Source: Thermoleophilia bacterium
Lineage (GTDB): Bacteria; Actinomycetota; Thermoleophilia; BMS3ABIN01
DNA length: 45,907 nucleotides
Reading direction: 5' to 3'
Assembly: GCA_041658445.1 (NCBI GenBank)
Contig: JBBAAB010000001.1
Coordinates: 1-45,907, forward strand
Shown: in pieces, positions 1-25,274 of the stretch
Layout of the letters: the number at the start of each line of letters is the position of its first letter
Position numbering within the stretch: the stretch's first letter is position 1
Position numbers and translations under genes: made by a program
Notes under the pieces: model-generated
What the model was told of the DNA's origin: nothing
What the model saw: the letters and a program-made list of their open reading frames with translations, nothing else
Database searches by the model: none

Positions 1-127
1 CTAGCGAACTCGCCGGCCAGCTCGCCATATGCGTCGCTTGGCCTGCCGCCGGGCTTGCCCGTATGTTCGGTGTACACCTCCACAAGAGCCGCGCGCGCCT
101 TAGAGGCCGCAAGCTCCTGCCGGCGTG
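1..127. repeat. Terminal direct repeat copy 1 (identical to 45781..45907); circular-closure overlap or terminal redundancy
   Basis: nt 1-127 read base-for-base identical to 45781-45907. Confidence 0.95.
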
Positions 128-1625: not shown

Positions 1626-1940
1626 ATGACCAACCTCAAGGCCAGCATCCTCCTCTACCTGCTCCTCTGCGTCCAGGCAGCCGACTGGGGCACTACGGTA
1701 TGGATCATGTCCTTTGGGGGCGTTGAGGCCAACCCCATCATGGCGCCCCTGTTCGCCCTCTCCCCCTGGGTTGCCATCCTGCCCAAGCTTGCCATCGTAG
1801 CCGGCGTGACGCTGCTCTACCTGGCCGCCCGCAAGCAAGATAGACCTCTGGTTATGTGGGGCGTCGCCGCATCCGTCCTTGTGTCCATGCCGCCCGTAGT
1901 CTGGAACCTGATCCAGCTTTGGAATGCCGGGCTTATCTAG
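1626..1940 (+). CDS. Small multi-pass membrane protein (DUF5658-like: DWGTT...EANP)
   Basis: TAAGGAGTCTGAGC RBS context; three hydrophobic segments. Confidence 0.65.
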   Translation: MTNLKASILLYLLLCVQAADWGTTVWIMSFGGVEANPIMAPLFALSPWVAILPKLAIVAGVTLLYLAARKQDRPLVMWGVAASVLVSMPPVVWNLIQLWNAGLI

Positions 1941-2156
1941 CCCAACGGATGCGAGCTAAACTGCAATGCCGAGGGCGGCATAGGGGCACCCGTCGGCGTG
2001 CAACTTGCGCATCTCGAAGTATTCCGCCGTCGATGCCTGGGTACAATTCGGCCAGCAGAATCGGCAGGCGTGTACGTCCCCGTCCCACCAAGCCATTTCC
2101 AAAAGACGCATAGCCTCTAGCCGCCTGGCGTTGTCAGTTTCAGCGACTTGTTGGGC
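1940..2156 (-). repeat. attC-like site b4 (217 bp, long translated loop)
   Basis: Sense strand: GCCCAAC-AAGTC-GCT[G]AAACTG[A]C ... G CAGTTT AGC-TCGCATCC-GTTGGGC. AAACTG/CAGTTT covary. Confidence 0.7.
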
Positions 2157-2258
2157 GGCGTCGAGCCAATCAGCAAACTTCACAGCATGCACATGAATGT
2201 CGGGATCGCCCCGTTCCGAAAGATACTGCCTAAGCAAATCTCTATACCTGCCCATCAT
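1956..2258 (-). CDS. Cassette ORF b4, hypothetical Cys/His-rich protein
   Basis: GGAGAA RBS; the ORF runs through the attC arm and ends at the conserved TAG in the 3' arm (..IAV*). Confidence 0.65.
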   Translation of the reverse strand: MMGRYRDLLRQYLSERGDPDIHVHAVKFADWLDAAQQVAETDNARRLEAMRLLEMAWWDGDVHACRFCWPNCTQASTAEYFEMRKLHADGCPYAALGIAV

Positions 2259-2275
2259 TTCTCCTTCGGGCGACC

Positions 2276-2486
2276 GCCCAACGAGCTAAACTGCGAGCCG
2301 CCGTGCCATACAGGCTGGCTTCGGGCAACGATCATCGTAGGTTTGACACCCACAGTCTGGGCATGTCTTCAGGCGGCGCCCGCCGTGTGCGGCCAACTCC
2401 AATTCGCAGCCAGCAAGATGCCCGTTCTGGAACCCACACTCGGGGCAAATACTGAAGGCGGCGTCAGTTTCAGCGAGTTGTTGGGC
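2276..2486 (-). repeat. attC-like site b3 (211 bp, long translated loop, short 3' spacer)
   Basis: Sense strand: GCCCAAC-AACTC-GCT[G]AAACTG[A]C ... G CAGTTT AGC-TC-GTTGGGC. Confidence 0.7.
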
Positions 2487-2750
2487 GGCCAAGTCGGCAA
2501 TCCAAGTGGTCTCGTTCCCGCGCATCATCGCCGTCACAACTATGTCGAAGGCCTCTTTGCATGCCGGGCACGTCATGGACTGCTGAAATCTTACCGGCCT
2601 CCAAGCTTCAGCGAGTTGTTGGGCGGCGACATCATCTAACAAGGCCAACAAAGGCAACACCGGTATCAGGGCATTCCGAGAGTGCCGCGCAAGTGCCCTC
2701 TCTGCCCGAGTGCGAATGTCATCCAGGCCCTTCTGTGTTACGTACTTCAT
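2286..2750 (-). CDS. Cassette ORF b3, hypothetical zinc-ribbon-rich protein (CPAC, CPECG, CPDCGC)
   Basis: GAGGGAAC RBS; contains an orphan attC 5' arm plus the b3 arm in frame (AAQQLAEA.. twice). Confidence 0.65.
   Translation of the reverse strand: MKYVTQKGLDDIRTRAERALARHSRNALIPVLPLLALLDDVAAQQLAEAWRPVRFQQSMTCPACKEAFDIVVTAMMRGNETTWIADLAAQQLAETDAAFSICPECGFQNGHLAGCELELAAHGGRRLKTCPDCGCQTYDDRCPKPACMARRLAV
2603..2630 (-). repeat. Orphan attC 5' arm (R''+L'' only) inside ORF b3
   Basis: Sense strand: GTCGCCGCCCAACAACTCGCTGAAGCTT, with no partner 3' arm before the next 5' arm. Confidence 0.6.
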
Positions 2751-2776
2751 CGTTCCCTCATTCGGGCGTGGCGACC

Positions 2777-2865
2777 GTCCAACGGATGTGAGCTAAGCCG
2801 CTCGCCGAACCCCATCATTCGTGTCGTTGTCGCCAACAAGAGTCGGCTTCAGCGAGTTGTTATAC
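2777..2865 (-). repeat. attC-like site b2 (89 bp)
   Basis: Sense strand: GTATAAC-AACTC-GCT[G]AAGCCG[A]CTC ... GAG CGGCTT AGC-TCACATCC-GTTGGAC. Confidence 0.8.
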
Positions 2866-3044
2866 GGCAGCGCCCCGTGCTTGCGCGCATACCTATACTC
2901 GGCGTAATGAGATAGAACCACGTGCTCCCGCACGTCGTCTTCCCATCCCTCAAACCCACAGAGCACACATGAGCCCTTGGTCTGAAGCAGGCCGCCGTGC
3001 AGATTCTTAGCAATCCAAGCATCAATCCTCTGTCTGATCCTCAT
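2793..3044 (-). CDS. Cassette ORF b2, hypothetical protein
   Basis: AGGAGGAA RBS; ends at the TAG of the attC 3' arm (..RAA*); reads the 5' arm in a different frame (YNNSLKPT). Confidence 0.65.
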   Translation of the reverse strand: MRIRQRIDAWIAKNLHGGLLQTKGSCVLCGFEGWEDDVREHVVLSHYAEYRYARKHGALPYNNSLKPTLVGDNDTNDGVRRAA

Positions 3045-3066
3045 GCCATTCCTCCTGTGCGCTGCC

Positions 3067-3187
3067 GTATAACGGATGCGAGCTAAGCTGCCGGGCCTTT
3101 GGTGGCGAGGTAAGACGCCTTTGACTCGGCATCCCTCAATAGCCCCGCCAGCCGCTTGGTGCGGTCAGCTTCAGCGAGTTGTTCGAC
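3067..3187 (-). repeat. attC-like site b1 (121 bp)
   Basis: Sense strand: GTCGAAC-AACTC-GCT[G]AAGCTG[A]CCG ... CGG CAGCTT AGC-TCGCATCC-GTTATAC. Confidence 0.8.
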
Positions 3188-3310
3188 GGCGACTTCATCG
3201 CGCAGGCGCAGAAACTCCGCCGTGACCCGTTGTATGTCATCGACTCGCAGCGTGGCAACGAGCGCTATGCACCAAATCTTGTCGCGGCTTGCATCTCTAG
3301 GATCAATCAT
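3083..3310 (-). CDS. Cassette ORF b1, hypothetical protein
   Basis: GGAGGGAAC RBS then ATG at 3310; ends at the attC TAG (..PAA*). Confidence 0.65.
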   Translation of the reverse strand: MIDPRDASRDKIWCIALVATLRVDDIQRVTAEFLRLRDEVAVEQLAEADRTKRLAGLLRDAESKASYLATKGPAA

Positions 3311-3333
3311 CGTTCCCTCCATTCAGGCGTGGC

Positions 3334-3354
3334 GACCGTCGAACTAGTGATTCG
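3334..3354 (-). other. Array-leading junction AATCACTAG|TTCGACGGTCGCC (attI-like site or promoter remnant)
   Basis: The same 11-mer AATCACTAGTT heads array A at 5770-5791. Confidence 0.4.
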
Positions 3355-3388
3355 GCGTCAAAATCGACGCATATCTCGCTTCTCGGGC

Positions 3389-3700
3389 CTACTTTGCAAC
3401 TTGCTTTGTCGTCGCGTTCGCCCGCCTTCGCAGGGCGTCGTATGCCTCTTGTCCCATTCTCTCAATCACCCACTCGTAGAACAGCGTCGGATTCCCATGC
3501 GCCCACAGGTGGCACGCAAAACAGAGAGAGTAAGCGTTGTCTTCGTCCCACCTTACTGATTTGTTCCTGCGGCTGAACACATGGGCACAGTGCAAACCAG
3601 CATGTTTTGGCCCATAATACTTGTGACACCTCTCGCAGCCATGCCCGGCCCTGGCACGAATGAAGTCCGAGAACTCGGCGTCCCTCTTGTCGCGCTTCAG
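3389..3700 (-). CDS. NinG/Rap-like zinc-finger HNH-type protein; start codon unresolved
   Basis: FSDFIRAR..GCERC..HCAHVFSRR..N..LCFACH pattern. The conserved N-terminal part lies upstream of the first ATG/GTG/TTG (TTG at 3595). The frame is open only to 3736, with only CTG candidates (3700, 3724). Confidence 0.55.
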   Translation of the reverse strand: MKRDKRDAEFSDFIRARAGHGCERCHKYYGPKHAGLHCAHVFSRRNKSVRWDEDNAYSLCFACHLWAHGNPTLFYEWVIERMGQEAYDALRRRANATTKQVAK

Positions 3701-4005
3701 CGGTCTATCTCCCTCTGAAGCCAGCGAGGCAAATCCTCAAAGTCCTGATTTGGATCGCGCCACCACTCAATGAGTCTCCACACCAGCCCTGCCGCCTCCG
3801 CCAAGTCGTCCTCCGTCTCGGCCAACTGGCGGCGGGCGTCGTCGCGCTCGCGACGCGCCCACCACGCCTCACTCTTCAGGGCCCATCGTTCATATTCATC
3901 CATCTTCTCACTCCTTCCCCGCGTCCCGGTGCGGACAATGGTCTGCGAGTTGTCTACATGCGTGAACGCACGGTAGCCCTCAATCTCTGTCCGGTGGTCA
4001 TCCAT
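3697..4005 (-). CDS. Hypothetical Trp/Arg-rich protein
   Basis: AGGAGG RBS 7 nt upstream of ATG 4005; follows attC a5. Confidence 0.6.
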   Translation of the reverse strand: MDDHRTEIEGYRAFTHVDNSQTIVRTGTRGRSEKMDEYERWALKSEAWWARRERDDARRQLAETEDDLAEAAGLVWRLIEWWRDPNQDFEDLPRWLQREIDR

Positions 4006-4622
4006 CTTTCGCCTCCTGGCGACCGCCCAACGAGCTGAGCTGCCGGGCCTTTGCAGCGGCAACCGCTGAACATGCACAGCTTCTCTATGGGATGGTGCAC
4101 CGATCTGGGGTGCCCGGCATTGTCAGTTTCAGCGACTTGTTGGGCGGCGGGCTTCTCCTTGAGGGCGGCGCGGGCTTCGTCCAGTCTCATCAGCGCCAAT
4201 GTCGTCTCCGAGGCGTGGGGCCCAAGGTCGGACTCCAACTCCATGTAGGATTCAGCGGCCTTGCGGAACTTCCCCAGCGCCTCGATGCGGGCCACTAGCC
4301 AATCAACCTCCGTCAGCATTACTTCGTATGTGCCCGGCAGGGCCAGGCGATCCTTGATTGTTTGCAGGTTCATGGCTTCTCCTTTGAGGGCGGCACGAAG
4401 GGCGTCGAAGTCCTCTTCGGGAACCGCCACCCATCTGCCGATGAACTTCGGGTCATCGTAGATGATGACACTGCGCCTCAATTGTGCCACCTCCTCCAGC
4501 GCCTCGATGCGGGCTTCCAAGGCGGATACGGCAGCAACGGCCATCCACTTATGATTGCTCTCCCCAGCTACCTCGGCAGCATTGAAACAGTTTGCGACAA
4601 ACTCCGCTATCTTTGGTATCAT
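3954..4622 (-). CDS. Hypothetical coiled-coil protein with a C-terminal Cys/His module; reads through attC a5
   Basis: ATG at 4622. The usual TAG in the attC 3' arm is CAG here, so the ORF runs 24 codons further and overlaps the next gene start. Confidence 0.55.
   Translation of the reverse strand: MIPKIAEFVANCFNAAEVAGESNHKWMAVAAVSALEARIEALEEVAQLRRSVIIYDDPKFIGRWVAVPEEDFDALRAALKGEAMNLQTIKDRLALPGTYEVMLTEVDWLVARIEALGKFRKAAESYMELESDLGPHASETTLALMRLDEARAALKEKPAAQQVAETDNAGHPRSVHHPIEKLCMFSGCRCKGPAAQLVGRSPGGERWMTTGQRLRATVRSRM
4025..4145 (-). repeat. attC-like site a5 (121 bp, Cys/His-module loop, short 3' spacer)
   Basis: Sense strand: GCCCAAC-AAGTC-GCT[G]AAACTG[A]C..GCCGGGC ... GCCCGG CAGCTC AGC-TC-GTTGGGC. 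Confidence 0.7.
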
Positions 4623-4625
4623 CCT

Positions 4626-4913
4626 CTACTCCTTCCCTGCGAGGGCGGCAATGTACGCGTCCTTCTCGTCCGCCGTCATGCCCTCATACGGGTTGCAAGC
4701 CGGGCCATTCCCCTCGACTTGTTGGGCGGCGAGAGCCTCCGGAGAGCCGCAATACGGGCAGAACGACACGGAATCCTGCATCATCCAGTCTGATGCCTCA
4801 GCCTCTTTGCAGGAGGCCACAAACGGGAGGGCCAACACCACATAGCCCATGTCGCAGTTGCCACACACCACAACCGGGAACTCATACGGGATGTGCAATT
4901 TCATCGTTGTCAT
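4626..4913 (-). CDS. Cassette ORF a4, hypothetical Cys-rich protein with an orphan attC R'' relic
   Basis: GAGGAGAG RBS; an internal CGCCGCCCAACAAGTCGAGG relic (4714-4733) is translated as AAQQVE. Confidence 0.6.
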   Translation of the reverse strand: MTTMKLHIPYEFPVVVCGNCDMGYVVLALPFVASCKEAEASDWMMQDSVSFCPYCGSPEALAAQQVEGNGPACNPYEGMTADEKDAYIAALAGKE

Positions 4914-4939
4914 TCGCTCTCCTCACGGGCGTGGCGACC

Positions 4940-5065
4940 GCCCAACGAGCTGAGCTGCCGGACTCACCACTCGCCAGGCATATCGTCAATGTAGCCCTCA
5001 TCAATGACGTGTTCAAGCATCTGCTTTGCAATTGAAGGCCGGTCAGCTTCAGCGAGTTGTTCGAC
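4940..5065 (-). repeat. attC-like site a3 (126 bp)
   Basis: Sense strand: GTCGAAC-AACTC-GCTGA[A]GCTG[A]CCGG ... CCGG CAGC TCAGC-TC-GTTGGGC. Confidence 0.75.
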
Positions 5066-5182
5066 GGCGAGGCGTCTGGCAACTCTAAACCCAGCCATAA
5101 ACCCGACGCGATGCTGATCTCGCCACCCGCGGCGCCCGGCCTGGCGCTTCCACCATTTGTCAAACTCTTCTGTTGCGGGCAT
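4964..5182 (-). CDS. Cassette ORF a3, hypothetical protein
   Basis: ATG at 5182; reads through the 5' arm (AVEQLAEAD) and stops in the loop. Confidence 0.6.
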   Translation of the reverse strand: MPATEEFDKWWKRQAGRRGWRDQHRVGFMAGFRVARRLAVEQLAEADRPSIAKQMLEHVIDEGYIDDMPGEW

Positions 5183-5205
5183 TTCGCACTCCAGTTAGTG
5201 GCGCC

Positions 5206-5335
5206 GTTGAACGGATGCGAGCTAAGCTGCCGGGCCTTTGCAGCGGCATCCGCTGAACATGCACAATTTCTCCGTGGGATGATGCAATGATGGGGGGTGC
5301 CCACATTGGCAGGCCCGGTCAGCTTCTTGTTGGGC
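5206..5335 (-). repeat. attC-like site a2 (130 bp, Cys/His-module loop)
   Basis: Sense strand: GCCCAAC-AAG-AAGCTG[A]CCGGGCC ... GGCCCGG CAGCTT AGC-TCGCATCC-GTTCAAC. Positions 5210-5325 are a perfect inverted copy of 10798-10913. Confidence 0.8.
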
Positions 5336-5449
5336 GGCGAGACCGCGGGCATAGCCCGCCTCGAATCCCTTGCGAGAATCAAACTTGTTTGCGTCCTGAT
5401 CCACCTCGGGACTCAGCCACCACTTCTCGAACTCGCTCATCTCGGGCAT
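5222..5449 (-). CDS. Cassette ORF a2, hypothetical protein ending in module RACQCGHPPSLHHPTEKLCMFSGCRCKGPAA
   Basis: GGAGACGAGG RBS; ends at the attC TAG. Confidence 0.65.
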   Translation of the reverse strand: MPEMSEFEKWWLSPEVDQDANKFDSRKGFEAGYARGLAAQQEADRACQCGHPPSLHHPTEKLCMFSGCRCKGPAA

Positions 5450-5472
5450 TTCCTCGTCTCCTTCGGGCGACC

Positions 5473-5561
5473 GTCCAACGGATGTGAGCTAAGCCGCTCG
5501 GCTAACCCTCTTCGACCTGGAACCGCGCTTGGGCCGAGTCGGCTTCAGCGAGTTGTTAGCC
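5473..5561 (-). repeat. attC-like site a1 (89 bp)
   Basis: Sense strand: GGCTAAC-AACTC-GCT[G]AAGCCG[A]CTCGGC ... GCCGAG CGGCTT AGC-TCACATCC-GTTGGAC (15 bp stem, 2 bulges). Confidence 0.85.
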
Positions 5562-5752
5562 CGCTCACCACGGGCAATGTACCGATACGAAATTCCTTCC
5601 TCAAACTTGTAGAGGAAGCATGCGCGCCCGAGACCGTCCACATAGCCAACCTCGGTGGCGTTCTCTGAGACAACGCGGGCAACCTCACCCTTGCTATTGC
5701 CAAAGGCGGAGACCAGGAACTCGATTCTGGGAGCGTCAGTCACCTTCGCCAT
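5489..5752 (-). CDS. Cassette ORF a1, hypothetical protein
   Basis: GAGAGAGGG RBS; ends at the attC TAG (..RAA*). Confidence 0.65.
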   Translation of the reverse strand: MAKVTDAPRIEFLVSAFGNSKGEVARVVSENATEVGYVDGLGRACFLYKFEEGISYRYIARGERANNSLKPTRPKRGSRSKRVSRAA

Positions 5753-5769
5753 TCAAGACCCTCTCTCGT

Positions 5770-5791
5770 TGCGGGCTAACTAGTGATTATA
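5770..5791 (-). promoter_or_regulatory. Array-A leading junction TATAATCACTAG|TTAGCCCGC (perfect -10 hexamer abutting the first cassette; attI-like?)
   Basis: Sense TATAAT at 5791-5786, with the cassette boundary 6-7 nt downstream. No good -35. The AATCACTAGTT 11-mer is shared with 3334-3354. Confidence 0.4.
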
Positions 5792-5827
5792 CGGCCGCTG
5801 TGTAAACTTGCGCGCCGAGTGTGCAAA

Positions 5828-5947
5828 TCATGTCACAAGCCAACCGGCAACAAACCCAAGAACGAATGCCGCAATTAGTGCTAGACAGCCCACCATCTCA
5901 GTAGTGCCACAGTCTCTCTCTTCGTTTGCCACCAAGTAGTCTGTCAC
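5828..5947 (-). CDS. Possible small single-pass membrane protein
   Basis: GTGA start/stop overlap with the upstream gene; hydrophobic C-terminal half; below the size cut-off of the ORF track. Confidence 0.3.
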   Translation of the reverse strand: MTDYLVANEERDCGTTEMVGCLALIAAFVLGFVAGWLVT

Positions 5948-6162
5948 AGCCCCGCCTCCTTATCAAGCCACTCTGAAAACGCAGCCGCCTGTTGGTTCCT
6001 ACGAATAATCATACTCAGGCGGTGGGCCTCCTGCTTCTTGGACTCGTGCTTCCCGCCCCTCCCAGACCAGGGCTGTGATCCGGCAAACTCGTGCGCCTGC
6101 CGCTCCGCTATTCTCATGGCTCGGTAAACAGTCTCGAACGTCACTTCAGCCTCCTCAGGCAC
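5944..6162 (-). CDS. Hypothetical protein
   Basis: ORF co-oriented with and overlapping its neighbours. Confidence 0.5.
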   Translation of the reverse strand: MPEEAEVTFETVYRAMRIAERQAHEFAGSQPWSGRGGKHESKKQEAHRLSMIIRRNQQAAAFSEWLDKEAGL

Positions 6163-6458
6163 AGGCTAACCTCGTACTTCCTGCCATTGCACCTTACCCT
6201 CATTCCGACTGGCCACGTTCCCTCTGCCAGATCGGCCTTGAATTCGGCCTTGGAGAATACCCTCCCGGAAGGCCACAAGTCGTTCGTCTCTCTCAGGGTC
6301 TCGTAACCCGCCGGCATCTTCGGCCGTCCGCGCCTATTGGCCGCCCGGCAATCACTACAGATGCTTCGATGAACGAGGTTCTTGAGCCGCCTGTCCTTCT
6401 CGCAGAACTGCTTTTCTGGTTTGTCCCAGCCACATTGTTTGCAGGTGCGCGTGTTCAT
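6141..6458 (-). CDS. Hypothetical zinc-ribbon protein (CKQC...CSDC)
   Basis: The ATG sits 6 nt downstream of a promoter -10 (leaderless). Confidence 0.6.
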   Translation of the reverse strand: MNTRTCKQCGWDKPEKQFCEKDRRLKNLVHRSICSDCRAANRRGRPKMPAGYETLRETNDLWPSGRVFSKAEFKADLAEGTWPVGMRVRCNGRKYEVSLCLRRLK

Positions 6459-6464
6459 AACTAG

Positions 6465-6492
6465 ATTATGCGCCTGTTTCTGGGGTTGTCAA
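6465..6492 (-). promoter_or_regulatory. sigma70-like promoter, leaderless start at 6458
   Basis: Sense strand: TTGACA(6492-6487)-16 nt-CATAAT(6470-6465)-6 nt-ATG. Confidence 0.5.
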
Positions 6493-6534
6493 GCCCCTCT
6501 TTTAGCGTCTGTTGATGGTGGGCAGTAGGCGCAG

Positions 6535-6858
6535 TCATTCAAGTCCGCGGCTGAGCTTGGCGCATTCCCTGAACTCTGCCCAGTTGTCTACAATGCGCCT
6601 ATCCATTGCGCGGTTTAGCCAAGACGGAACAAGCCCGATGGCGGGACCCCCGTGAACGTGCTCCATGTGATACCGCGCCCCGGGATCAAGCGGGCGACCG
6701 CGCCAGTCTACACCGGACGCAAACAGCGCTATCACCTCTTCGTATGTGCTGGTACACGGCCTGCCCTTTTCCCGGCAATGGCAGAGGAACTTGTTCGCTC
6801 GCCCTCTCGGTGTTCTGTCCCAGACCCGTCTCTTGTCCATTTTCGCCTCGTTCCCCAT
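6535..6858 (-). CDS. Hypothetical protein, weak HNH-like motif (HMEHVHGG...WLNRAM)
   Basis: The ATG sits 6 nt downstream of a promoter -10. The motif match is weak. Confidence 0.5.
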   Translation of the reverse strand: MGNEAKMDKRRVWDRTPRGRANKFLCHCREKGRPCTSTYEEVIALFASGVDWRGRPLDPGARYHMEHVHGGPAIGLVPSWLNRAMDRRIVDNWAEFRECAKLSRGLE

Positions 6859-6864
6859 GCCGTA

Positions 6865-6892
6865 AGTCTACTCCCGTTTGGTCTTGTGTCAA
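6865..6892 (-). promoter_or_regulatory. sigma70-like promoter, leaderless start at 6858
   Basis: Sense strand: TTGACA(6892-6887)-16 nt-TAGACT(6870-6865)-6 nt-ATG. It shares GGAGTAGACT with the promoter at 324-352. Confidence 0.5.
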
Positions 6893-7194
6893 GGCGGAAT
6901 CATTTCACCTAGGCATCGTCCCGACGTAGCCTCAAACGGCGCTGGTCTTCGCTTCACTCGCCTCGGCTACGCCGTCCGGTATGCGGCGGCGAAAGTGTCT
7001 CAATTGGTTTGCCAGATGTGTGAGCCGGTTTGGTTCGGCGGCATAAGGGCACACGTTTTACCCGGCTGTCCCGCCCTGCGATCTTGTTGACGCGGTTTCG
7101 CACCCGCAGATTTGAGACTATAGGGTGTGTCATATCGTCGGAACTTCTGGACAACTACCGACATACTTGCAGACTTGTGTAAAGAGTTCTGTCC

Positions 7195-7383
7195 TCAAGC
7201 CGGCTTGTGTAAGGGCTTCGTATGCTTCTCAACAATGGCTTGCCATCGGACGAACTGCTCTCCCGGTCTTCCGGTTGTCGCGGGATACAAACGAATCCAC
7301 TTCCGATAAACCTCTACCGGGAAATGGACAATCGGCTTGCCGTTCTTGTCCTTGCAGGTGCGACAGGGCTTGCTAGCGTTCAA
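7195..7383 (-). CDS. Hypothetical small protein (CRTC)
   Basis: ORF co-oriented with and overlapping the upstream gene end. Confidence 0.45.
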   Translation of the reverse strand: MNASKPCRTCKDKNGKPIVHFPVEVYRKWIRLYPATTGRPGEQFVRWQAIVEKHTKPLHKPA

Positions 7384-7543
7384 TGTTGTGGATTGTCATG
7401 TAGCGCGCTATCGCGTGTAGAATCTCAACGCAGTCCGCGGTATCCAGCGGGCGGTCGTCGCGGTTGATGGCGCCGAGCGCGGCCTTGAGTTGCTTCGCGG
7501 CAACGCCCACCTCTTTCAGTTCTTGGTCTTCGATGACTGTCAT
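7373..7543 (-). CDS. Hypothetical small protein
   Basis: GAGGA RBS 4 nt upstream of ATG 7543. The longer track ORF would overlap the tRNA-like element. Confidence 0.5.
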   Translation of the reverse strand: MTVIEDQELKEVGVAAKQLKAALGAINRDDRPLDTADCVEILHAIARYMTIHNIER

Positions 7544-7556
7544 GTTGTCCTCTAGT

Positions 7557-7633
7557 GGTGCGGGGCCGGATTCGAACCGACTGGTCATGCCTAAATGCTT
7601 CCCCGTTCGGGCCATTTATACAGCCGCCCGCAC
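7557..7633 (-). ncRNA. tRNA-like element: intact acceptor stem and T-arm, no foldable anticodon arm
   Basis: Sense strand: GTGCGGG...GTCGG-TTCGAAT-CCGGC-CCCGCAC-C. The acceptor pairing is 7/7 bp and the T-loop is canonical. A weak D-stem is present (GCTG/TGGC). No 5-bp stem with a 7-nt loop exists in the middle 45 nt. Confidence 0.4.
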
Positions 7634-7657
7634 CATGAACCCGGAAGTCGCTCATAT

Positions 7658-7686
7658 AGATTACGCCTCATTCTAGGGAAAGTCAA
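7658..7686 (-). promoter_or_regulatory. sigma70-like promoter directly upstream of the tRNA-like element
   Basis: Sense strand: TTGACT(7686-7681)-17 nt-TAATCT(7663-7658). Confidence 0.4.
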
Positions 7687-7854
7687 GCCCTGCCCTCCGG
7701 GGACTTGCAGCTTCGCGTGCATGTCATGTATCGTTGGGCGACGGCATACACCCACAATCGGCCACATGTCAACCCCCGGCGGCATTTTGCCTACATCTGG
7801 CGTCTTGACAGCCTCTGGTTCGGGCTTATGCTGTAGGCAGCTTAGGAGGCTGAA

Positions 7855-8580
7855 ATGAGAGAAATGCAGAAGGCACTCGTACTTCCCAGCGTGAACGAGG
7901 AAAGGTTTCTGGCGATTATGTCTGGGGCCGAGGTCGCGCTGGCAGAGGCGACCGAGATGGTGGACATCCTGAATCTTCGGAGTGACGCCGACGCCTACTC
8001 AGCCATGTTGGCGGCCAAGGGGGCCGGCCCGTACGCCCAACGGGTCAAGGTCTACCAGTTGAAGTGCGAGCGGAAGGCCGGCGACATTCTCAATGTCTTT
8101 CCGGCCGGGGACGGGCCGAAACCGGCTGGCGCGCCCGCCGGATACAAGAATGCGGCCGCCGCGGCAGAAGAGCTTGGCATCACCCGCATGATGCGGCAGT
8201 CTTGGCAACGGGAGGCGCGCCTCCCGGACCGCATCTTCTCGGCCTGGGTAAAGGACCTTCTTGAAAACAACATAGAGGTATCCCAGCGCGCTCTTTTGCG
8301 CCTTGCCAGGCCAACCGTTGCGCCCTCGCCGCCCGAGAAGCCGCTGACCATTCTTGACCGCTGGGCAGAGACGCTCAAGGAACTCAGCGACATCCTGTAT
8401 TCCATCGGGACATACCGGACCGCAAAGGAAGCCAAGTTGCACCTGTCCTACGCCAAGCACGCTGTTGCCGGCGTGACCACCATGTTGGCCGACGCCAAGG
8501 CGCTGGTGCGCGGCATTCTGGATGCCTACAACGACACGGTGGGCGGAAATCTAAGCATAGCGGGCGAGACGCCCGCGTAG
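7855..8580 (+). CDS. Hypothetical protein, possible DNA-binding (HTH-like ELGITRMMRQSW)
   Basis: AGGAGG RBS upstream; 241 aa. Confidence 0.6.
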   Translation: MREMQKALVLPSVNEERFLAIMSGAEVALAEATEMVDILNLRSDADAYSAMLAAKGAGPYAQRVKVYQLKCERKAGDILNVFPAGDGPKPAGAPAGYKNAAAAAEELGITRMMRQSWQREARLPDRIFSAWVKDLLENNIEVSQRALLRLARPTVAPSPPEKPLTILDRWAETLKELSDILYSIGTYRTAKEAKLHLSYAKHAVAGVTTMLADAKALVRGILDAYNDTVGGNLSIAGETPA

Positions 8581-8588
8581 GAGAACCA

Positions 8589-8765
8589 ATGAACGAGGTC
8601 CTAGACTTCGACTCTGTGGTGATCTTCGCCGCCGCCGTCCTGAAGACGGACGCGGTGCCGGCGGAGTATGACAGCCTGCCGGAGTGGGTGAGGCAGACGG
8701 CAGAGGAACTTGTGGCGACGAGCGTGCGCTGTGGCCCAGGCTGTACTCTGGACGCGAAGCCCTAG
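8589..8765 (+). CDS. Hypothetical small protein (58 aa)
   Basis: AGGAGAA RBS 4 nt upstream; below the ORF-track cut-off; hand translated. Confidence 0.5.
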   Translation: MNEVLDFDSVVIFAAAVLKTDAVPAEYDSLPEWVRQTAEELVATSVRCGPGCTLDAKP

Positions 8766-8829
8766 CTTCAAGTCCCCGGCAGGGCTGGACGTTCTCAAGG
8801 GGTAGATTTTGTTGTGGCACATTTGGGGC

Positions 8830-8858
8830 TTGACACAGGACAAAAACGGGTTGATACT
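8830..8858 (+). promoter_or_regulatory. sigma70-like promoter in the 237-nt non-coding gap
   Basis: TTGACA(8830-8835)-17 nt-GATACT(8853-8858). Confidence 0.4.
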
Positions 8859-9002
8859 CGTGAGTGAGCCGTGCGCAGCGAGTAGGCGCTGATGGAAGTC
8901 CAGCCACACAGGCGGCCCTGAAGCCTACAGCTAAAGAGGACGCCGGTTGGCACCTGTGAGCCGAACGTGACTTCGGCCGCCCGGCCCAACTTGGAGACAG
9001 AC

Positions 9003-9209
9003 ATGAAATGTCCAACGTGCGAAGGCGAGGGGAACTGGGTCGAATTGGTCTCTATGGAACTCGGGGGCCCCGTTGTTGCATGCGGGCGATGCCATGAGAC
9101 CGGCAGGGTGAGTATTTGGAACGTTCTGCGCGAGAAATTGTGGAATATCGCCCCCGAGCGGTTCATGGACTGGTATGTGGACAAGTTCTCTCCATACAGA
9201 GAGGGTTGA
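9003..9209 (+). CDS. Hypothetical zinc-ribbon protein (CPTCEGEG...CGRCHETG)
   Basis: GGAGA RBS 6 nt upstream of the ATG. Confidence 0.6.
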   Translation: MKCPTCEGEGNWVELVSMELGGPVVACGRCHETGRVSIWNVLREKLWNIAPERFMDWYVDKFSPYREG

Positions 9210-9210
9210 A

Positions 9211-9456
9211 ATGGAAGAAGAACGTCCCAATCTACGTCCCAGGTTGAACAAAGCCCTGAGAGAGAACGCCGAACTGAGGAAGCGGCTGGAGTGGCTTGAC
9301 TCCAACTGCGGGTTCTATGTTCGCGAGGGGGGGGAACTTCTTCTGGCTGGCATTGAGTACCGGTGGTTCCCGAAGAGACACAAGACATTGAACGAGGCCA
9401 TTGACGCTGAATTACTGGTGGCTACCGCCGACTTGAAGCCGGAACAGGACGCATAG
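9211..9456 (+). CDS. Hypothetical protein
   Basis: GAGGG RBS; start adjacent to the upstream stop. Confidence 0.55.
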   Translation: MEEERPNLRPRLNKALRENAELRKRLEWLDSNCGFYVREGGELLLAGIEYRWFPKRHKTLNEAIDAELLVATADLKPEQDA

Positions 9457-9467
9457 GGAGTCTGGGC

Positions 9468-9623
9468 ATGAGGCACACAATCGGAATGGCCCTTCTTGTT
9501 GTCGGCGCTGCGGTGTCCCTGATCTGCGTGGCGTACTCGGCAATCAAAGACCACAACTGGTGGCCCGCATTTGGAATGGGCGTTTTCATGTACGCCGCAG
9601 CCTTGGCGTGGGCATTCACATAG
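9468..9623 (+). CDS. Small two-TM membrane protein (51 aa)
   Basis: GGGAGTCTGGGC RBS context shared with several genes; hand translated. Confidence 0.5.
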   Translation: MRHTIGMALLVVGAAVSLICVAYSAIKDHNWWPAFGMGVFMYAAALAWAFT

Positions 9624-9634
9624 GGGGAGGGCGC

Positions 9635-10006
9635 ATGGACTACACGCCGGGGACGCTGCGGAAGTTGCCGTATGTTCCTCGCCTGCACGAGGAGGATATC
9701 ATGGCCCACGCCGATGCGTGGCAGGCCGACCGCAAGAGGCTGCTTCAGTACGGCCAACACCTTCCGGGCTGTATGGAGCCGGGTCTTGTGGACGAAGACT
9801 GCGCGTGTGGGTGGAGAGAGGCCCGCATGGCCCTCGCGCCCAGCGATACTTCGCAAGCCAAGTCCCCGGAGGGAAACGAGTGGCCACCGAAACGTCTCGT
9901 GATTGACGGGGACAATGATCCGGTTCGAGTTCCATACGAGAACCTGTGTCCCGAATGCAACCGTGTAACCAACGGGCGACGTTGCGCCCACTGCCAAGGA
10001 GAATGA
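9635..10006 (+). CDS. Hypothetical Cys-rich protein
   Basis: GGGGGAGG RBS. Confidence 0.6.
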   Translation: MDYTPGTLRKLPYVPRLHEEDIMAHADAWQADRKRLLQYGQHLPGCMEPGLVDEDCACGWREARMALAPSDTSQAKSPEGNEWPPKRLVIDGDNDPVRVPYENLCPECNRVTNGRRCAHCQGE

Positions 10007-10008
10007 AG

Positions 10009-10626
10009 ATGATCGGCACACCGAAGACTCTCAAGGTTCATGTAAGCCGCAAGCTGGGGGACAACGAATTCGGCTCTTACGGCGTGGATGCAGAACTAGA
10101 GGTAAGCCTTCCCCCCGACGCCAATCGAGACGAGGCGTTTGACGAGAACGACGCGTGGCTGACCGCGGCGGTAGGGCGGAGCATGGCCGAGAAGAAGGCT
10201 TCGATCCAGAAGATGCAGGCAGAGGCGGCCGAGGCAAAGAAGGGGCAGACCGTTGAGGCCGAAGAGGCAGAGACAAAACAAGACAAGCCGAAGGCAGACG
10301 CAAAAGAAGGGGAGGAACTGACGTTCAAGTGTGTCAAGTTCACCCTTGCGAAGCTGCCGGACAAGAAGTTCAAGTTGGAGCTGTACCCGGAGATCAAAGA
10401 CGCGCCAGGCAAGTATCCGACGATCAAGTTCACCGCCGAACGCGAGAAGATGTGGGACATGCTGCATGATGTCGCAGACGACTACGACTTCTCGGACTTG
10501 CCCGTTGAGTATGGTTGTGAATTTCTCGTCCACTACGCCATTGGTAGAGAGTTCGAGATCAAGGCCGGAGAACACAAGGGCGAGAAGTCGCACTACAAGG
10601 ACCTTTTGTCCATCGTTGCCATGTAG
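10009..10626 (+). CDS. Hypothetical acidic/Lys-rich protein
   Basis: AAGGAGA RBS. The G of its TAG stop is the base before the first cassette boundary. Confidence 0.6.
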   Translation: MIGTPKTLKVHVSRKLGDNEFGSYGVDAELEVSLPPDANRDEAFDENDAWLTAAVGRSMAEKKASIQKMQAEAAEAKKGQTVEAEEAETKQDKPKADAKEGEELTFKCVKFTLAKLPDKKFKLELYPEIKDAPGKYPTIKFTAEREKMWDMLHDVADDYDFSDLPVEYGCEFLVHYAIGREFEIKAGEHKGEKSHYKDLLSIVAM

Positions 10627-10658
10627 TTGGGCGGTCGCCACGCCAGAGAGAGGGAACA

Positions 10659-10901
10659 GTGGACATCAACATGGCTTTAGTTGACGAGGCTAGGCGCTAT
10701 CATGGTTTCTGCGGGCACGGGGCAGACTTCGATGTGTGTACGGCGCTTGCCTGCCGTCTAGCGCGGCACATTTTTCTCGCCGCCCAACAAGTCGCTGAAG
10801 CTGACCGGGCCTGCCAATGTGGGCACCCCCCATCATTGCATCATCCCACGGAGAAATTGTGCATGTTCAGCGGATGCCGCTGCAAAGGCCCGGCAGCTTA
10901 G
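10659..10901 (+). CDS. Cassette ORF c1, hypothetical protein ending in the Cys/His module
   Basis: GAGGGAAC RBS then GTG; ends at the attC TAG (..GPAA*). Confidence 0.6.
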   Translation: MDINMALVDEARRYHGFCGHGADFDVCTALACRLARHIFLAAQQVAEADRACQCGHPPSLHHPTEKLCMFSGCRCKGPAA

Positions 10902-10917
10902 CTCGCATCCGTTAGGC
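10782..10917 (+). repeat. attC-like site c1 (136 bp, Cys/His-module loop)
   Basis: GCCCAAC-AAGTC-GCT[G]AAGCTG[A]CCGGGCC ... GGCCCGG CAGCTT AGC-TCGCATCC-GTTAGGC. Confidence 0.85.
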
Positions 10918-10938
10918 GCACCCAGAAGGAGAAGGCCA

Positions 10939-11136
10939 ATGACCAAAGAAGAGGCCCTGGCATCAGTCGAGAAGATCAGGGAAGAGGCGGATGACGATGA
11001 GGTGGCACATTCGCATGAGGATGGTCTGCGCGCCCAGTTCATTGCGCATGTGGCGGAGATGCCCGGCGAGTTGGGCGAGTTGGCCAAGATTGTTCTCTCA
11101 ACGGACGAGATTTCGTTCGGCCGCTGGTGCGCCTAA
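10939..11136 (+). CDS. Cassette ORF c2, hypothetical acidic protein
   Basis: AAGGAGAAGG RBS; the TAA stop lies inside R'' (GCCTAAC). Confidence 0.65.
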   Translation: MTKEEALASVEKIREEADDDEVAHSHEDGLRAQFIAHVAEMPGELGELAKIVLSTDEISFGRWCA

Positions 11137-11218
11137 CAACTCGCTGGAGCGGACGCCTGTTGGCGAGCCGAGTAGATCGTTAGGGTTCGGGGCGCAGCTT
11201 AGCTCCGATCCGTTGGAC
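11131..11218 (+). repeat. attC-like site c2 (88 bp)
   Basis: GCCTAAC-AACTC-GCT[G]GAGCGG[A]CGCC ... GGCG CAGCTT AGC-TCCGATCC-GTTGGAC. Confidence 0.8.
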
Positions 11219-11242
11219 GGTCGCCCGAAGTTGGAGGTTGAA

Positions 11243-11602
11243 ATGCCCGCACCGTATCTGTCTATAGAGGCAATGGCCGCATGGATTGCTCTGGACCGAG
11301 AGAACAATGGTGCCAGCAAGGAGTGGTGGGATTGGGCCGTATCCGCCTATGGTGTCGCCGCCCAACAAGAAGCTGAAGCTGACGTGGCCGTTGGATCGCA
11401 TCTGAAGCGGGTCCTGGAAGATGACGAGATCGTGGGCGAAGGGGGCTCGTTCCACATGGAGCGCATGGACGACGACCACATTTGGTTCCAGGTGGATAGC
11501 ATCGCGTTCGACCTCGATGTGAAGAGGGGCAAACTGTTGTGGAGGCCGCAGTGCAATGGGGGCTGGCCCGCTCTGGCTCTCTTGCTGGGCCACGCAGCTT
11601 AG
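11243..11602 (+). CDS. Cassette ORF c3, hypothetical protein
   Basis: GGAGG RBS; reads through the 5' arm (AAQQEAEAD) and ends at the attC TAG (..GHAA*). Confidence 0.65.
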   Translation: MPAPYLSIEAMAAWIALDRENNGASKEWWDWAVSAYGVAAQQEAEADVAVGSHLKRVLEDDEIVGEGGSFHMERMDDDHIWFQVDSIAFDLDVKRGKLLWRPQCNGGWPALALLLGHAA

Positions 11603-11618
11603 CTCCGGTCCGTTATAC
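11360..11618 (+). repeat. attC-like site c3 (259 bp, long translated loop)
   Basis: GCCCAAC-AAGAA-GCT[G]AAGCTG[A]CGTGG ... CCACG CAGCTT AGC-TCCGGTCC-GTTATAC. Confidence 0.7.
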
Positions 11619-11638
11619 GCACGGAAGATGAGGGTCAA

Positions 11639-11968
11639 ATGGACAACTTGAAAGCATGGATGTTGGAGGCTGCCGACGAGGAGCCAATCCTGGCAGTCGT
11701 GATTGGCGAGATGGGATGGGGCGACTACGGCAGCGATGCTGTGCCCCAGTATCAGGAACAGCGTCGCGGCGAGGTCCTGTCTTGGGACGAGGCCGCCCCG
11801 ATGATCGACTACGAGTTTAGATCGGGGTATGGCGCGCCGAGATGCAATGCGATTGTGGCGTGGACGGCAAGCAAGGTGATCTCGATTTCGCAGTATGACG
11901 GCTCCACGTCGGTGTTCACGCTCCCGCGCAATCCGACCGCACACATGCCCGGCATGCCGGGGGGCTAA
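11639..11968 (+). CDS. Cassette ORF c4, hypothetical protein
   Basis: GAGGG RBS; stops before the attC. Confidence 0.65.
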   Translation: MDNLKAWMLEAADEEPILAVVIGEMGWGDYGSDAVPQYQEQRRGEVLSWDEAAPMIDYEFRSGYGAPRCNAIVAWTASKVISISQYDGSTSVFTLPRNPTAHMPGMPGG

Positions 11969-11977
11969 CGCCCGTGC

Positions 11978-12066
11978 GTATAACAACTCGCTGAAGCCGA
12001 CTCGGCCCAAGCGGGGTTCAAAGTCGAAGAAGGTTGGCCACGCAGCTTAGCTCCGGTCCGTTATAC
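11978..12066 (+). repeat. attC-like site c4 (89 bp)
   Basis: GTATAAC-AACTC-GCT[G]AAGCCG[A]CTCGGCC ... GGCCACG CAGCTT AGC-TCCGGTCC-GTTATAC. Confidence 0.8.
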
Positions 12067-12283: not shown

Positions 12284-12310
12284 GTATAACAACTCGCTGG
12301 AGCGGACGCC
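12284..12310 (+). repeat. Truncated attC (5' arm only; deletion derivative of the c2-type site)
   Basis: GTATAAC-AACTCGCTGGAGCGGACGCC is joined directly to the CGCAGTTGGAGGATGAAATG leader. Confidence 0.7.
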
Positions 12311-12327
12311 CGCAGTTGGAGGATGAA

Positions 12328-12738
12328 ATGCCAGCACAAGAAGAGTTCGATTTGGAGTTCTCACGCCGAGGGAATTATGGGACGCCCAAGACGGTCTGCC
12401 GGACATGGTATGAGTTGGGATGGTTTGCCTCACGGCGCGCCGCCCAACAAGAAGCTGACCGGTGCCCAGACCGCGGAGAGGAGGCATGGCGCGCAGTGTT
12501 GGATTTGTGCGAGCCTCTACGGCCCGACGAGACAGGAATTGGAAGGCTGTTGGGCATTCGTGCGTGGGCGCTTTCGGCGCTTGCAGAACTAGAGCCCGAC
12601 AAACAGTGTGCCTGCGGTCGAGAGGGTTCGCTAGACCACGAGGACTTCTGCATGCCCAAGGGGATGTGGCCGAGGCATTGGATAACGGGGGGGGCTATAG
12701 ACCCCGATGCCGCCCCCAAGGAGAAGCCCAATGGCTAA
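12328..12738 (+). CDS. Hypothetical protein containing an orphan attC 5' arm (12438-12463)
   Basis: GGAGGATGAA RBS; internal CGCCGCCCAACAAGAAGCTGACCGG is translated as AAQQEADR. Confidence 0.6.
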   Translation: MPAQEEFDLEFSRRGNYGTPKTVCRTWYELGWFASRRAAQQEADRCPDRGEEAWRAVLDLCEPLRPDETGIGRLLGIRAWALSALAELEPDKQCACGREGSLDHEDFCMPKGMWPRHWITGGAIDPDAAPKEKPNG

Positions 12739-13009
12739 CGGACCCCTAAGTGAACGAATGCTTGAGGAAGCCTATGTCGGCGGCGTCGCCGGATGGGACG
12801 ACATGATTGACGAGGTATCCAAGATGGAGGCCCGCATCGAGGCGCTGGAGGAGGTAGAGGATGCGGCACGCCCCATTTCAGAATGGGCGCATGAACAGTA
12901 TGAAGTCCGCGGCGTTATGACCGCCGGGGGAACAGCGGAAGATGCCGCTCTAATCGACCTTGTGAAGTATCTCGATCAATGTTTGGCCTCCCTCGCGGGG
13001 AGGCCATGA
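12731..13009 (+). CDS. Hypothetical protein
   Basis: GGAGAAG RBS. Confidence 0.55.
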   Translation: MANGPLSERMLEEAYVGGVAGWDDMIDEVSKMEARIEALEEVEDAARPISEWAHEQYEVRGVMTAGGTAEDAALIDLVKYLDQCLASLAGRP

Positions 13010-13407
13010 GTGAACTAGAGGCATTCTTCGGGCCGTCAGAGGGAGCCAGTCATATGCCGGATCATGTCCGACGCACCTCCTGGCCGCGTCAGCCGGAACA
13101 TCTAAGGCGTATCCTGGATGTGTTTCAACAGGAGGCCGGGTTTGAGCCGATTGGCGTCCTGAAACAAACATGGATTGCCGGCGCCAAGGCATGGCACTCT
13201 GTATTCGGTGAAAACACCTCTCTATTGATAATGGCCATTGAGTACATGAGACAGAAGGAGTTGATGATTGCCTCTCCGAGGTCGTGTATTACAGTGGCCT
13301 TAGAGTTACAACGTAAGGGAGAGGGGCAGAGTAAGGCCGACTACTTCCGCGAATATGCCAAGAAGTTAGACGCTGCCGCGGACTTGGAAGTAGACGAGGA
13401 AGACTAA
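13006..13407 (+). CDS. Hypothetical protein
   Basis: ATGA coupling; GGGGAGG RBS. Confidence 0.6.
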   Translation: MSELEAFFGPSEGASHMPDHVRRTSWPRQPEHLRRILDVFQQEAGFEPIGVLKQTWIAGAKAWHSVFGENTSLLIMAIEYMRQKELMIASPRSCITVALELQRKGEGQSKADYFREYAKKLDAAADLEVDEED

Positions 13408-13422
13408 GGAGTCTGGGCGACT

Positions 13423-24983: not shown

Positions 24984-25274
24984 CTATGCGTACCAGACGC
25001 AGGCAACGCCACCCGCGCCGGTCAGGTCAACGTAACAGGCGGTCGAGAAGTAGACGCCGCCCAGTTCTCGGAAGTCGATGAAGTGCGACTGCCCGATGAT
25101 CGTATTGCACTCGAACATGTGCGTTCCCGTTGCGTCAACGGCGTTGTGGAACTCCGCCTTTGTGGCAGCCGCCCCCCCATACAGCAGAATGGCCATGACG
25201 TTGCACGGGCTCGTCCCATTTACCTGCCCGTCGGCTGCAACTCTCTTGAATGCGTACTGGTTTAGGCTTTTCAT
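24984..25274 (-). CDS. Small virion-module protein, paralog of 24673..24975
   Basis: ATGA coupling with the GT2 stop; alignment by eye to the neighbour. Confidence 0.6.
   Translation of the reverse strand: MKSLNQYAFKRVAADGQVNGTSPCNVMAILLYGGAAATKAEFHNAVDATGTHMFECNTIIGQSHFIDFRELGGVYFSTACYVDLTGAGGVACVWYA

Follow-up and report, generated by a model that had tools for sequence, protein, structure and literature searches.

The 45,907-nucleotide (nt) stretch analysed here (contig JBBAAB010000001.1 of assembly GCA_041658445.1; hereafter the window) is a phage genome that carries two arrays of integron attC sites and no integrase. An attC site is regarded as a non-coding structural signal at the 3' end of a gene cassette, its loop being devoid of information. 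We propose, as the probable reading of these arrays, that their attC sites have enlarged loops encoding C-terminal protein domains, and that these domains are exchanged between proteins at the arms of the sites; one and the same DNA would then be under two constraints.

attC arrays and their coding loops

The motif of the 5' arm (R''-L'') occurs 15 times in the window, against 0.06 expected by chance, and always in gene orientation. We delineated 16 elements (Table 1) in two divergently oriented arrays, both in the accessory-gene region of the phage, one on the minus strand (~1940-5561) and one on the plus strand (10626 to ~12460). Four elements are short (88-89 nt), five measure 121-136 nt, including three that share a common module, three measure 211-259 nt, and four consist of the 5' arm only. 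The arms fit RYYYAAC...GTTRRRY with imperfect L''/L' repeats (5' cores GCCCAAC, GCCTAAC and GGCTAAC; 3' cores GTTGGGC, GTTAGGC, GTTATAC and GTTGGAC); the 5' cores GTCGAAC and GTATAAC lie one position off RYYYAAC.

A covariance model (R1), trained only on 40 attCs from cellular arrays, several of them beside IntI genes, returns 12 full-length matches in the window (E 1e-16 to 2e-5, all covering model positions 1-102), taking in all three module sites and all three long sites. The predicted consensus structure shows 3+3 R pairs, with spacers that are asymmetric and unpaired, and bulges of a single base occur on the 5' ('') arm only; in predicted single-strand DNA folds, the window sites adopt the same stem with a bulged T. 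A 20-nt pattern of the same arm is abundant in metagenomes and in Chloroflexota genomes (metagenome-assembled genomes, MAGs, of Anaerolineae and Chloroflexia), where it recurs 8-11 times per 8 kb in classic cassette arrays. Six cellular loci with this arm, L085, L097, L153, L169 and L239 among them, carry IntI homologues that are 50-54% identical to IntI1.

The junctions between cassettes bear a characteristic signature: at 17 junctions, R' fits the next R'' with 9 mismatches and its own R'' with 23, and none of 20,000 permutations gave as good a fit to the next R'' (last six bases of R' compared). We read this match as the footprint of integrase crossover at G/TT, the slash marking the crossover point. 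On sequence grounds, the elements are genuine integron attC sites of the type found in Chloroflexota chromosomal integrons.

The first and last 127 nt of the window (1-127 and 45781-45907) form a perfect direct repeat, so the window is a complete phage genome of ~45.8 kb, circularly closed or terminally redundant. Among its products are a major capsid protein of the SU10 type, the large subunit of a terminase, a GH25 lysin and a protein of 1917 aa. A tblastn search with IntI1 found nothing in the window at E <= 1e-3, the sole match being a 17-residue chance alignment (E 8.8), and no integrase in related phage loci either; no recombinase domain was found among the large open reading frames (ORFs) of the window. 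The complete genome thus contains no intI that could form, with attI and Pc next to the array, a complete integron. With 8 scoring sites in 1940-5561 (minus), 4 in 10782-12066 (plus) and no integrase, the arrays are therefore clusters of attC sites lacking integron-integrases (CALINs).

Cellular arrays with this arm have ORFs that close ahead of the site, at the TAA contained in R'' (GCCTAAC) or with the TGA of L''. The phage mostly has GCCCAAC as its R'', and the ORF continues as AAQQxAEAD: since R'' is GCCCAAC or GTCGAAC, and not the stop-bearing GCCTAAC or GTATAAC, the ORF reads R''-L'' in a fixed frame. The cassette ORF would thus run through R''-L'' instead of stopping ahead of attC, go on through an enlarged loop of 66-234 nt that encodes a small C-terminal domain, and close at a TAG lying within L' (...PAA-TAG). 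In this genome TAG serves as an ordinary stop, closing 10 of the 22 long genes, which rules out its reassignment as a sense codon. The original prediction, made from the DNA alone, had described the 5' arm as a translated AAQQ linker. The arm is indeed read as AAQQ[VLE]AE[AT]D or a near variant at 11 of the 16 window sites; at two it is read in another frame (NNSLKPT), at three the ORF ends before or inside R'', and a low-confidence structural model predicts the end of a helix instead of a flexible linker.

For the analysis of the loops, those of at least 45 nt were pooled from the window and from the related metagenomic phage contigs L003, L004, L006, L249 and L250 (n = 25). Twenty-two of them share the phase of the 3'-arm TAG, where one third would be expected by chance (binomial ~2e-8), and the three out-of-phase loops each stop a few codons ahead of that arm. 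The frame itself contains 4 stop codons, against 24 and 31 in the other two (~1100 codons per frame), and the GC contents of loop interiors at the three codon positions (0.63/0.46/0.71) resemble those of the long genes of the phage (0.59/0.46/0.71). Many loops are Cys-rich with paired CxxC motifs. Two pairs of related loops have low ratios of nonsynonymous to synonymous change (omega): 0.17 in L003/L249 (p = 0.0017; differences by codon position 1:2:9) and 0.32 in L006/L250 (p = 0.0016). These figures indicate that the long loops are coding and under purifying selection as protein; they are presumably translated.

The three sites of 211-259 nt, whose long loops had been predicted, proved real, with loops of 165, 165 and 207 nt that are Cys-rich or otherwise open. 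An attC site is typically about 57-141 bp long, with a short non-coding loop; these three sites are longer, and eight window loops are open in phase with a coding signature.

Beside the coding loop, a paired stem is kept. The 6-8 nt inside L'' and L' vary from site to site yet stay complementary (CGGGCC/GGCCCG, GTGGCC/GGCCAC, GCCGCC/GGCGGC, GCTGGCGG/CCGCCAGC). On average 5.5 of 8 positions pair, against 4.29 +/- 0.16 with permuted partners (0 of 5000 permutations as high, in a kind of test that kinship inflates); in sites of at least 150 nt total length, the mean is 6.3 pairs. The diversity of pair types argues for continued co-evolution of the arms over as much as 234 nt of coding loop. We describe this as a dual constraint, in which the hairpin base appears to be held by compensatory change while the loop evolves as protein.

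This co-evolution bears on the strongest of the competing explanations, that the long-loop elements are relic half-sites kept as coding sequence, or cassettes fused after loss of an attC. The genome has no integrase, four elements are reduced to a 5' arm, and sites of 211-259 nt exceed the usual attC range. Fused cassettes are also documented (PMC4670013, PMC8876359). Nevertheless, every long site has both arms intact and a full-length attC model score, the cassette signature persists at the junctions of long sites, and the 6-8 covarying base pairs by the L boxes are predicted neither by fusion nor by pure coding constraint. Arm co-evolution argues against simple cassette fusion and against dead half-sites alike, and we regard both as unlikely.

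Proposed exchange of loops between proteins

Three attC sites, m5, m2 and p1 (copies 1, 2 and 3), contain the same module. Their presence had been predicted, and all three are full-length model matches, the second starting at 5203. On the coding strand they start GCCGCCCAACAAG(TCGCTG)AAGCTGAC and end GGCCCGGCAGCT(T/C)AGCTCG...GTTRRRY; between the arms they read RACQCGHPPSLHHPTEKLCMFSGCRCKGPAA, and NAGHPRSVHHPIEKLCMFSGCRCKGPAA in the copy at 4025. Site p1 consists of R'' GCCCAAC, L'', the stem extension CCGGGCC/GGCCCGG, a coding loop of 84 nt, an L' containing TAG, and R' GTTAGGC. The predicted hairpin CAGCGG-NTG-CCGCTG occurs in both versions of the module, and the N-terminal parts of the three ORFs are mutually unrelated, as had also been claimed.

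Copies 2 and 3 lie in inverted orientation and are 100% identical over 117 nt (5210-5326 and 10797-10913); over 139 nt they are 95.7% identical, the sole difference being a 6-nt deletion in the 5' arm. The three copies therefore amount to two independent sequences and a single comparison. Over 78 ungapped nt, copy 1 differs from the others at 10 positions in 8 codons, 5 of which changed purely synonymously (TCG/TCA, CAC/CAT, AAG/AAA, CTG/TTG, GGT/GGA); the earlier count had been four in seven. By the Nei-Gojobori method we obtain sd = 6.0, nd = 4.0 and omega 0.15, with a one-sided Fisher p of 0.006 in the claimed frame and of 0.65 and 0.81 in the two others. Since the compared nucleotides include the stem and the hairpin, this test of selection is partly confounded, and purifying selection on the module, as judged from the window copies alone, is suggestive but thin. 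Copy 1 also lacks the first CxC (a 9-nt difference) and has CAG in place of the TAG of the 3' arm, so that its ORF extends 23 codons into the next gene.

The two identical module sites enclose the central 5.5 kb (5327-10796) as inverted repeats. If they recombined, this segment would flip and both proteins would stay unchanged; their perfect identity may stem from ongoing conversion or inversion.

Distant relatives support the module as a protein better than the three window copies do. P0005, a protein of 77 aa that is encoded in L249 and related to the module protein, emerged from an exhaustive HMMER search; its loop is RACACGHRASVHLALAGDCFACHCGRYSPAA: the ligand pattern is kept, the DNA is only ~47% identical and the hairpin is gone. 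Two further loops, in L006 (~2326) and L249 (~9380), share C.CG(H/Y)...C..C, and five independent sequences conserve the ligands as C.CGH...C...C. The module is probably a metal-binding Cys/His peptide, CxCGH-x7-13-C-x2-5-C. A zinc ribbon or zinc knuckle, with paired metal ligands (CxC/CxxC ... CxxC) on a small beta-hairpin, is one candidate class for it. The top non-self HMMER match, P0002 (1909 aa), was set aside as a low-complexity repeat protein. The original claim that the loop is selected as protein is thus weak for the module, which offers one comparison, and clear for the two other loop pairs and the diverged relatives.

Other searches returned little. A word-indexed search of 5.8 billion proteins gave nothing for the 40-aa module and only the protein itself for the full m2 ORF. 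In IMG/VR, an exact-pattern scan found no copy of the module DNA, and a scan with the 3' arm gave no contigs beyond those found by other searches. In tblastn, four module-type peptides found no more relatives among all fetched loci. A weak match to phrog_6114 (59-aa proteins; E 0.006-0.014) recurs in the module region of the ORFs 5222-5449, 10671-10901 and 3954-4622.

These data also bear on the idea that read-through is incidental: the sites would be ordinary attCs, the module would be kept as DNA only, through recent duplication and its hairpin, and the peptide would be a meaningless tail acquired when R'' lost its TAA. Two of the three copies are indeed identical, the module loop has a hairpin and folds better than shuffled sequence, copy 1 is without its CxC and stop codon, and in cellular arrays the same frame at times enters the loop for a few codons by chance. 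However, the synonymous excess is confined to the claimed frame, relatives with ~47% loop nucleotide identity hold the Cys/His ligands and not the hairpin, the frame is open and in phase over 25 long loops with a coding-type GC profile, and two other loop pairs have omega values of 0.17-0.32; we consider incidental read-through improbable. Least of all are the elements something other than attC, such as a phage-specific intergenic repeat (terminator or regulatory hairpin) or a boundary of homologous mosaicism: the sites do lie at gene ends and are oriented like the genes in either arm of the early region, and phage mosaicism at short conserved boundaries is well known, but cellular cassette arrays with the 20-nt arm pattern number in the hundreds and some of them adjoin IntI genes, a model trained solely on cellular arrays recovers the phage sites, and the complementarity of R' to the next R'' is specific to IntI crossover at G/TT, which leaves this explanation largely refuted.

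For our preferred reading, coding loops that are exchanged between proteins, the evidence comes from mosaicism. In 25 read-through cassettes we compared the BLAST relatedness of N-terminal parts and of loops. Sixteen pairs are related in the N-terminus, and no such pair has a loop in common; 6 pairs, the module copies among them, are related in the loop, and no such pair has a common N-terminus. The loops in L003 (~10506-10312) and L249 (~10392) are 93% identical while the N-terminal parts are 32% identical; those in L006 (965) and L250 (911) are 81% identical and follow N-termini of two different families. Conversely, the window ORF 1956-2258 combines an L250-type N-terminus (MMG.Y...FADWLD) with an unrelated loop. 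Related loops on unrelated N-termini, and the converse, support the prediction of an exchangeable domain junction and indicate that the history of the loops is independent of that of the N-termini. Downstream of related loops, the cassettes differ as well. The moving unit is therefore attC plus loop, its right edge at the G/TT crossover point and its left edge in the 5' arm; cassettes bounded at R'', with loops co-inherited with the downstream N-terminus, are rejected on the same ground. Assembly chimeras do not explain the mosaics either, since the shared loops have diverged (81-93% identical, not identical).

Each C-terminal domain is flanked by the same ~30-nt arms, so the unit of attC and coding loop could be copied or exchanged between cassettes. 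Whole cassettes would have entered the phage, and would move, at G/TT by IntI-type recombination with an integrase supplied by the host. Loops would shift relative to N-termini by a second exchange in or near the 5' arm, most likely homologous recombination or gene conversion between the shared arms. Such exchange between arms is also assumed to keep the attCs of chromosomal integrons uniform. Alternatively, the second exchange could be an IntI top-strand reaction cutting RYYYAA/C in R'', which would yield an identical in-frame product; recombination of top strands does occur, though less often (Qi et al. 2023, PMC9892861). Because the breakpoints fall inside ~30 nt common to all sites, the homologous and integrase routes are indistinguishable here. 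IntI may, on this scheme, still act on sites with long loops.

More tentatively, we suggest that it is possible that the phage lineage co-opted attC sites as in-frame junctions, defined by structure, at which attC and domain moved together between unrelated N-terminal domains. This would be domain shuffling mediated by a recombination site, akin to exon shuffling; a host integrase working on the bottom strand at R' and on the top strand at R'' may carry it out, and small early proteins would be diversified. The cassette proteins, small at 70-150 aa and encoded in the accessory region, fall into no recognisable family; that they serve host takeover or counter-defence is no more than a guess.

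Several observations weigh against selected, exchangeable domains. The module comparison counts 10 differences only, in a stretch whose conserved stem and hairpin constrain the DNA, and the loss of the first Cys pair and of the stop codon in copy 1 looks like decay, not selection, at that site. The m2 protein and P0005 are alike in both N-terminus and loop (a pair just under the BLAST threshold used for the pair counts), so linkage is sometimes unbroken. The family is tiny: diverged relatives of the module turned up in L006 and L249, and in all there are the window and about five metagenomic contigs, although the collections searched run to billions of sequences. No cassette protein, the module included, has a significant family in Pfam or PHROGs, and the structure prediction that had been suggested as a check, an AlphaFold model of the m2 protein, is of low confidence (pLDDT 65, pTM 0.36, from a 5-row alignment). 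The phage has no integrase, the four half-sites indicate eroding arrays, and we know of no attCs of 211-259 nt that are recombined.

Remaining sites and genomic setting

Table 1 Positions of attC elements, cassette ORFs and other features in the window
Feature	Position	Strand	Remarks
attC p1, module copy 3	10782..10917	plus	top model match, 68 bits, E 1e-16; DNA fold z = -2.5
Cassette ORF, 76 aa	10671..10901	plus	last 40 residues AAQQVAEADRACQCGHPPSLHHPTEKLCMFSGCRCKGPAA encoded within attC p1
attC m2, module copy 2	5203..5335	minus	as copy 3 except 6-nt deletion in L''
Cassette ORF, 75 aa	5222..5449	minus	MPE..F.KWW-type N-terminal part, then module; exact protein on record is P0001
attC m5, module copy 1	4025..4145	minus	87% identical over 85 nt; DNA fold z = -3.4
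222-aa ORF (P0003)	3954..4622	minus	reads through attC m5; without the TAG, overlaps next gene start
Long attC m10, 217 nt	1940..2156	minus	165-nt loop is Cys-rich C-terminal segment of ORF 1956-2258; E 4e-10
Long attC m9, 211 nt	2276..2486	minus	165-nt loop encodes CPEC...CPDC zinc-ribbon-like segments of ORF 2286-2750; zinc-ribbon matches below threshold
Long attC p3, 259 nt	11360..11618	plus	207-nt loop gives ~70 residues ending HAA-TAG
attC m6	3067..3187	minus	69-nt coding loop; ORF 3083-3322 ends ...KGPAA-TAG
attC m3	4940..5065	minus	ORF 4964-5182 reads 5' arm as AVEQLAEAD, stops in loop shortly before 3' arm
attC m1, short canonical, 89 nt	5473..5561	minus	61 bits; ORF 5489-5752 crosses in other frame, basic tail NNSLKPTRPKRGSRSKRVSRAA
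attC m7, short canonical	2777..2865	minus	ORF 2793-3044 reads NNSLKPT frame
attC p2, short canonical	11131..11218	plus	upstream ORF ends at TAA within R'' (GCCTAAC)
attC p4, short canonical	11978..12066	plus	upstream ORF ends ahead of R''
Half-sites p5 and p6, decayed, 5' arm only	12284..12465	plus	E 0.15; p6 read AAQQEAD in ORF ending 12738
Half-site m8, 5' arm	2589..2624	minus	E 0.6; read AAQQLAEAW in ORF 2286-2750
Half-site m4, degenerate 5' arm	4700..4731	minus	read AAQQVEG in ORF 4626-4913 (zinc-ribbon-like)
Plus-array start, bare GTTGGGC and leader GGTCGCC	10624-10640	plus	directly after TAG of ORF 9946-10626; complements R'' of first attC
Lone R'-like GTTCGAC and leader GGTCGCCACGCC	3326..3344	minus	complements R'' GTCGAAC of attC m6; precedes cassette 3083-3322
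LAGLIDADG endonuclease, free-standing	349-786	minus	E 6e-15; near genome end
HNH endonuclease	44830-45372	minus	E 2e-10; near genome end

A cassette starts with no preceding attC at two places, one in each array (plus-array start and lone R'-like element in Table 1), as expected for insertion at a secondary GTT. The start of the plus array, just past the stop of ORF 9946-10626, is similar to the insertion at secondary sites that bioRxiv 2022.09.11.507474 describes. At the short sites m1 and m7, and at L006 1832-1920, the upstream ORF crosses in a different frame and gives a basic tail, NNSLKPTRPKRGSRSKRVSRAA or ...TLVGDNDTNDGVRRAA, that ends at the TAG of L'; this tail thus recurs in a second contig.

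In L249, genes for Dam and N6_N4 DNA methyltransferases accompany the cassettes (9536-9988; upstream, 1514-2569 and 4531-5211). The Dam gene 9536-9988 lies directly upstream of them and its 3' end abuts the 5' arm of an attC. Methyltransferases have been reported in phage CALINs (Qi et al. 2023, PMC9892861).

Two further repeats occur in the window. A 47-nt repeat on the plus strand (1576-1622, 9421-9467 and 13372-13418; 72-77% identical; ...GACTTGAAGC...TAAGGAGTCTGRGCA) covers a gene's stop together with the ribosome-binding site of the gene that follows, bears no relation to the attC arms, and at two of its three places is followed by genes of small membrane-like proteins. A 41-nt inverted repeat (88%; 4489-4529 and 12815-12855) encodes ...EARIEALEEV... 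in paralogous coiled-coil-like segments, one per array, namely the N-terminal part of ORF 3954-4622 and ORF 12707-13009.

Beside the terminase gene, a cluster (40129-43439) has weak MptE-like matches, under the Pfam threshold, together with Methyltransf_24/CmcI-like methyltransferases, and a family-2-like glycosyltransferase (25271-26125, minus; near or below the Pfam threshold) adjoins the structural genes. Their presence suggests modification of sugars, or of DNA or the virion. No near relative of the window was found among 50,697 deposited phage genomes, and no Rfam family and no tRNA in the window.

The contig is filed at NCBI within a Thermoleophilia (Actinomycetota) MAG, yet it is a phage genome with Chloroflexota-type attC sites. 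The contig may have been mis-binned, and its host may belong to Thermoleophilia, after the bin, or to Chloroflexota, after the attC type. For an uncultured phage, the attC type is a hint to the host; here it points to Chloroflexota, at odds with the label of the bin.

Relation to known systems

If our reading is correct, the logic of the integron reaches from the shuffling of genes to the shuffling of protein domains, in phages without an integrase of their own. It bears on how attC sites join unrelated ORFs and on how long a loop an integrase tolerates. Detection methods that assume short non-coding attC sites downstream of ORFs may miss this class.

Close relatives of the sites are those of sedentary Chloroflexota chromosomal integrons (for example CAVPYC010000001.1; L140, L144, L154, L166, L186), which have near-identical R''-L'' and L'-R' arms and a near-identical stem architecture. 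Unlike the phage sites, they measure 88-131 nt, their ORFs end at or before the site and their loops are not open in phase. Among phages, the promoter early stem-loop (PeSL) cassettes of T4-type phages offer another parallel: there, small accessory ORFs in hyperplastic regions sit between short conserved repeats that presumably drive a modular shuffling. PeSLs, however, are intergenic modules of promoter and terminator, and are neither integron sites nor translated, in contrast to the coding attCs described here.

CALINs are known in virulent and temperate phages, divergent orientations included, and phage attCs are recombined by IntI1 (Qi et al. 2023, PMC9892861). The present arrays are like them in being integrase-less and phage-borne. 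Those CALINs contain 2-4 sites of ordinary length downstream of ORFs, whereas this genome has 12 scoring sites and 4 half-sites, mostly inside ORFs and with domain-coding loops. In a full-text literature search of incomplete coverage, we found no natural attC whose loop encodes a selected protein domain, and no domain-level shuffling at attC arms. Phage CALINs themselves being already known, what appears to be new is the coding loops of 66-234 nt.

Translation also enters or crosses attC in fused cassettes and in short ORFs within attC, and proteins can be joined there (PMC8876359; PMC4670013). Fused cassettes arise when the attC is lost in part or completely, and the short ORFs serve translational coupling, whereas in the phage the attC is intact and the loop would be a selected coding segment. 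Finally, synthetic coding attC sites, designed as linkers or within lacZ (Nivina et al. 2020, PMC7439510), resemble the phage sites in meeting attC-structure and coding constraints at once, with the site placed between parts of a protein. In those engineered sites of ~60-70 nt, the whole hairpin is the linker; in the phage, a whole small domain would lie in the loop while the arms provide the junction and the stop. The arrays described here would thus be the natural counterpart of coding attC sites that have so far existed only as constructs.

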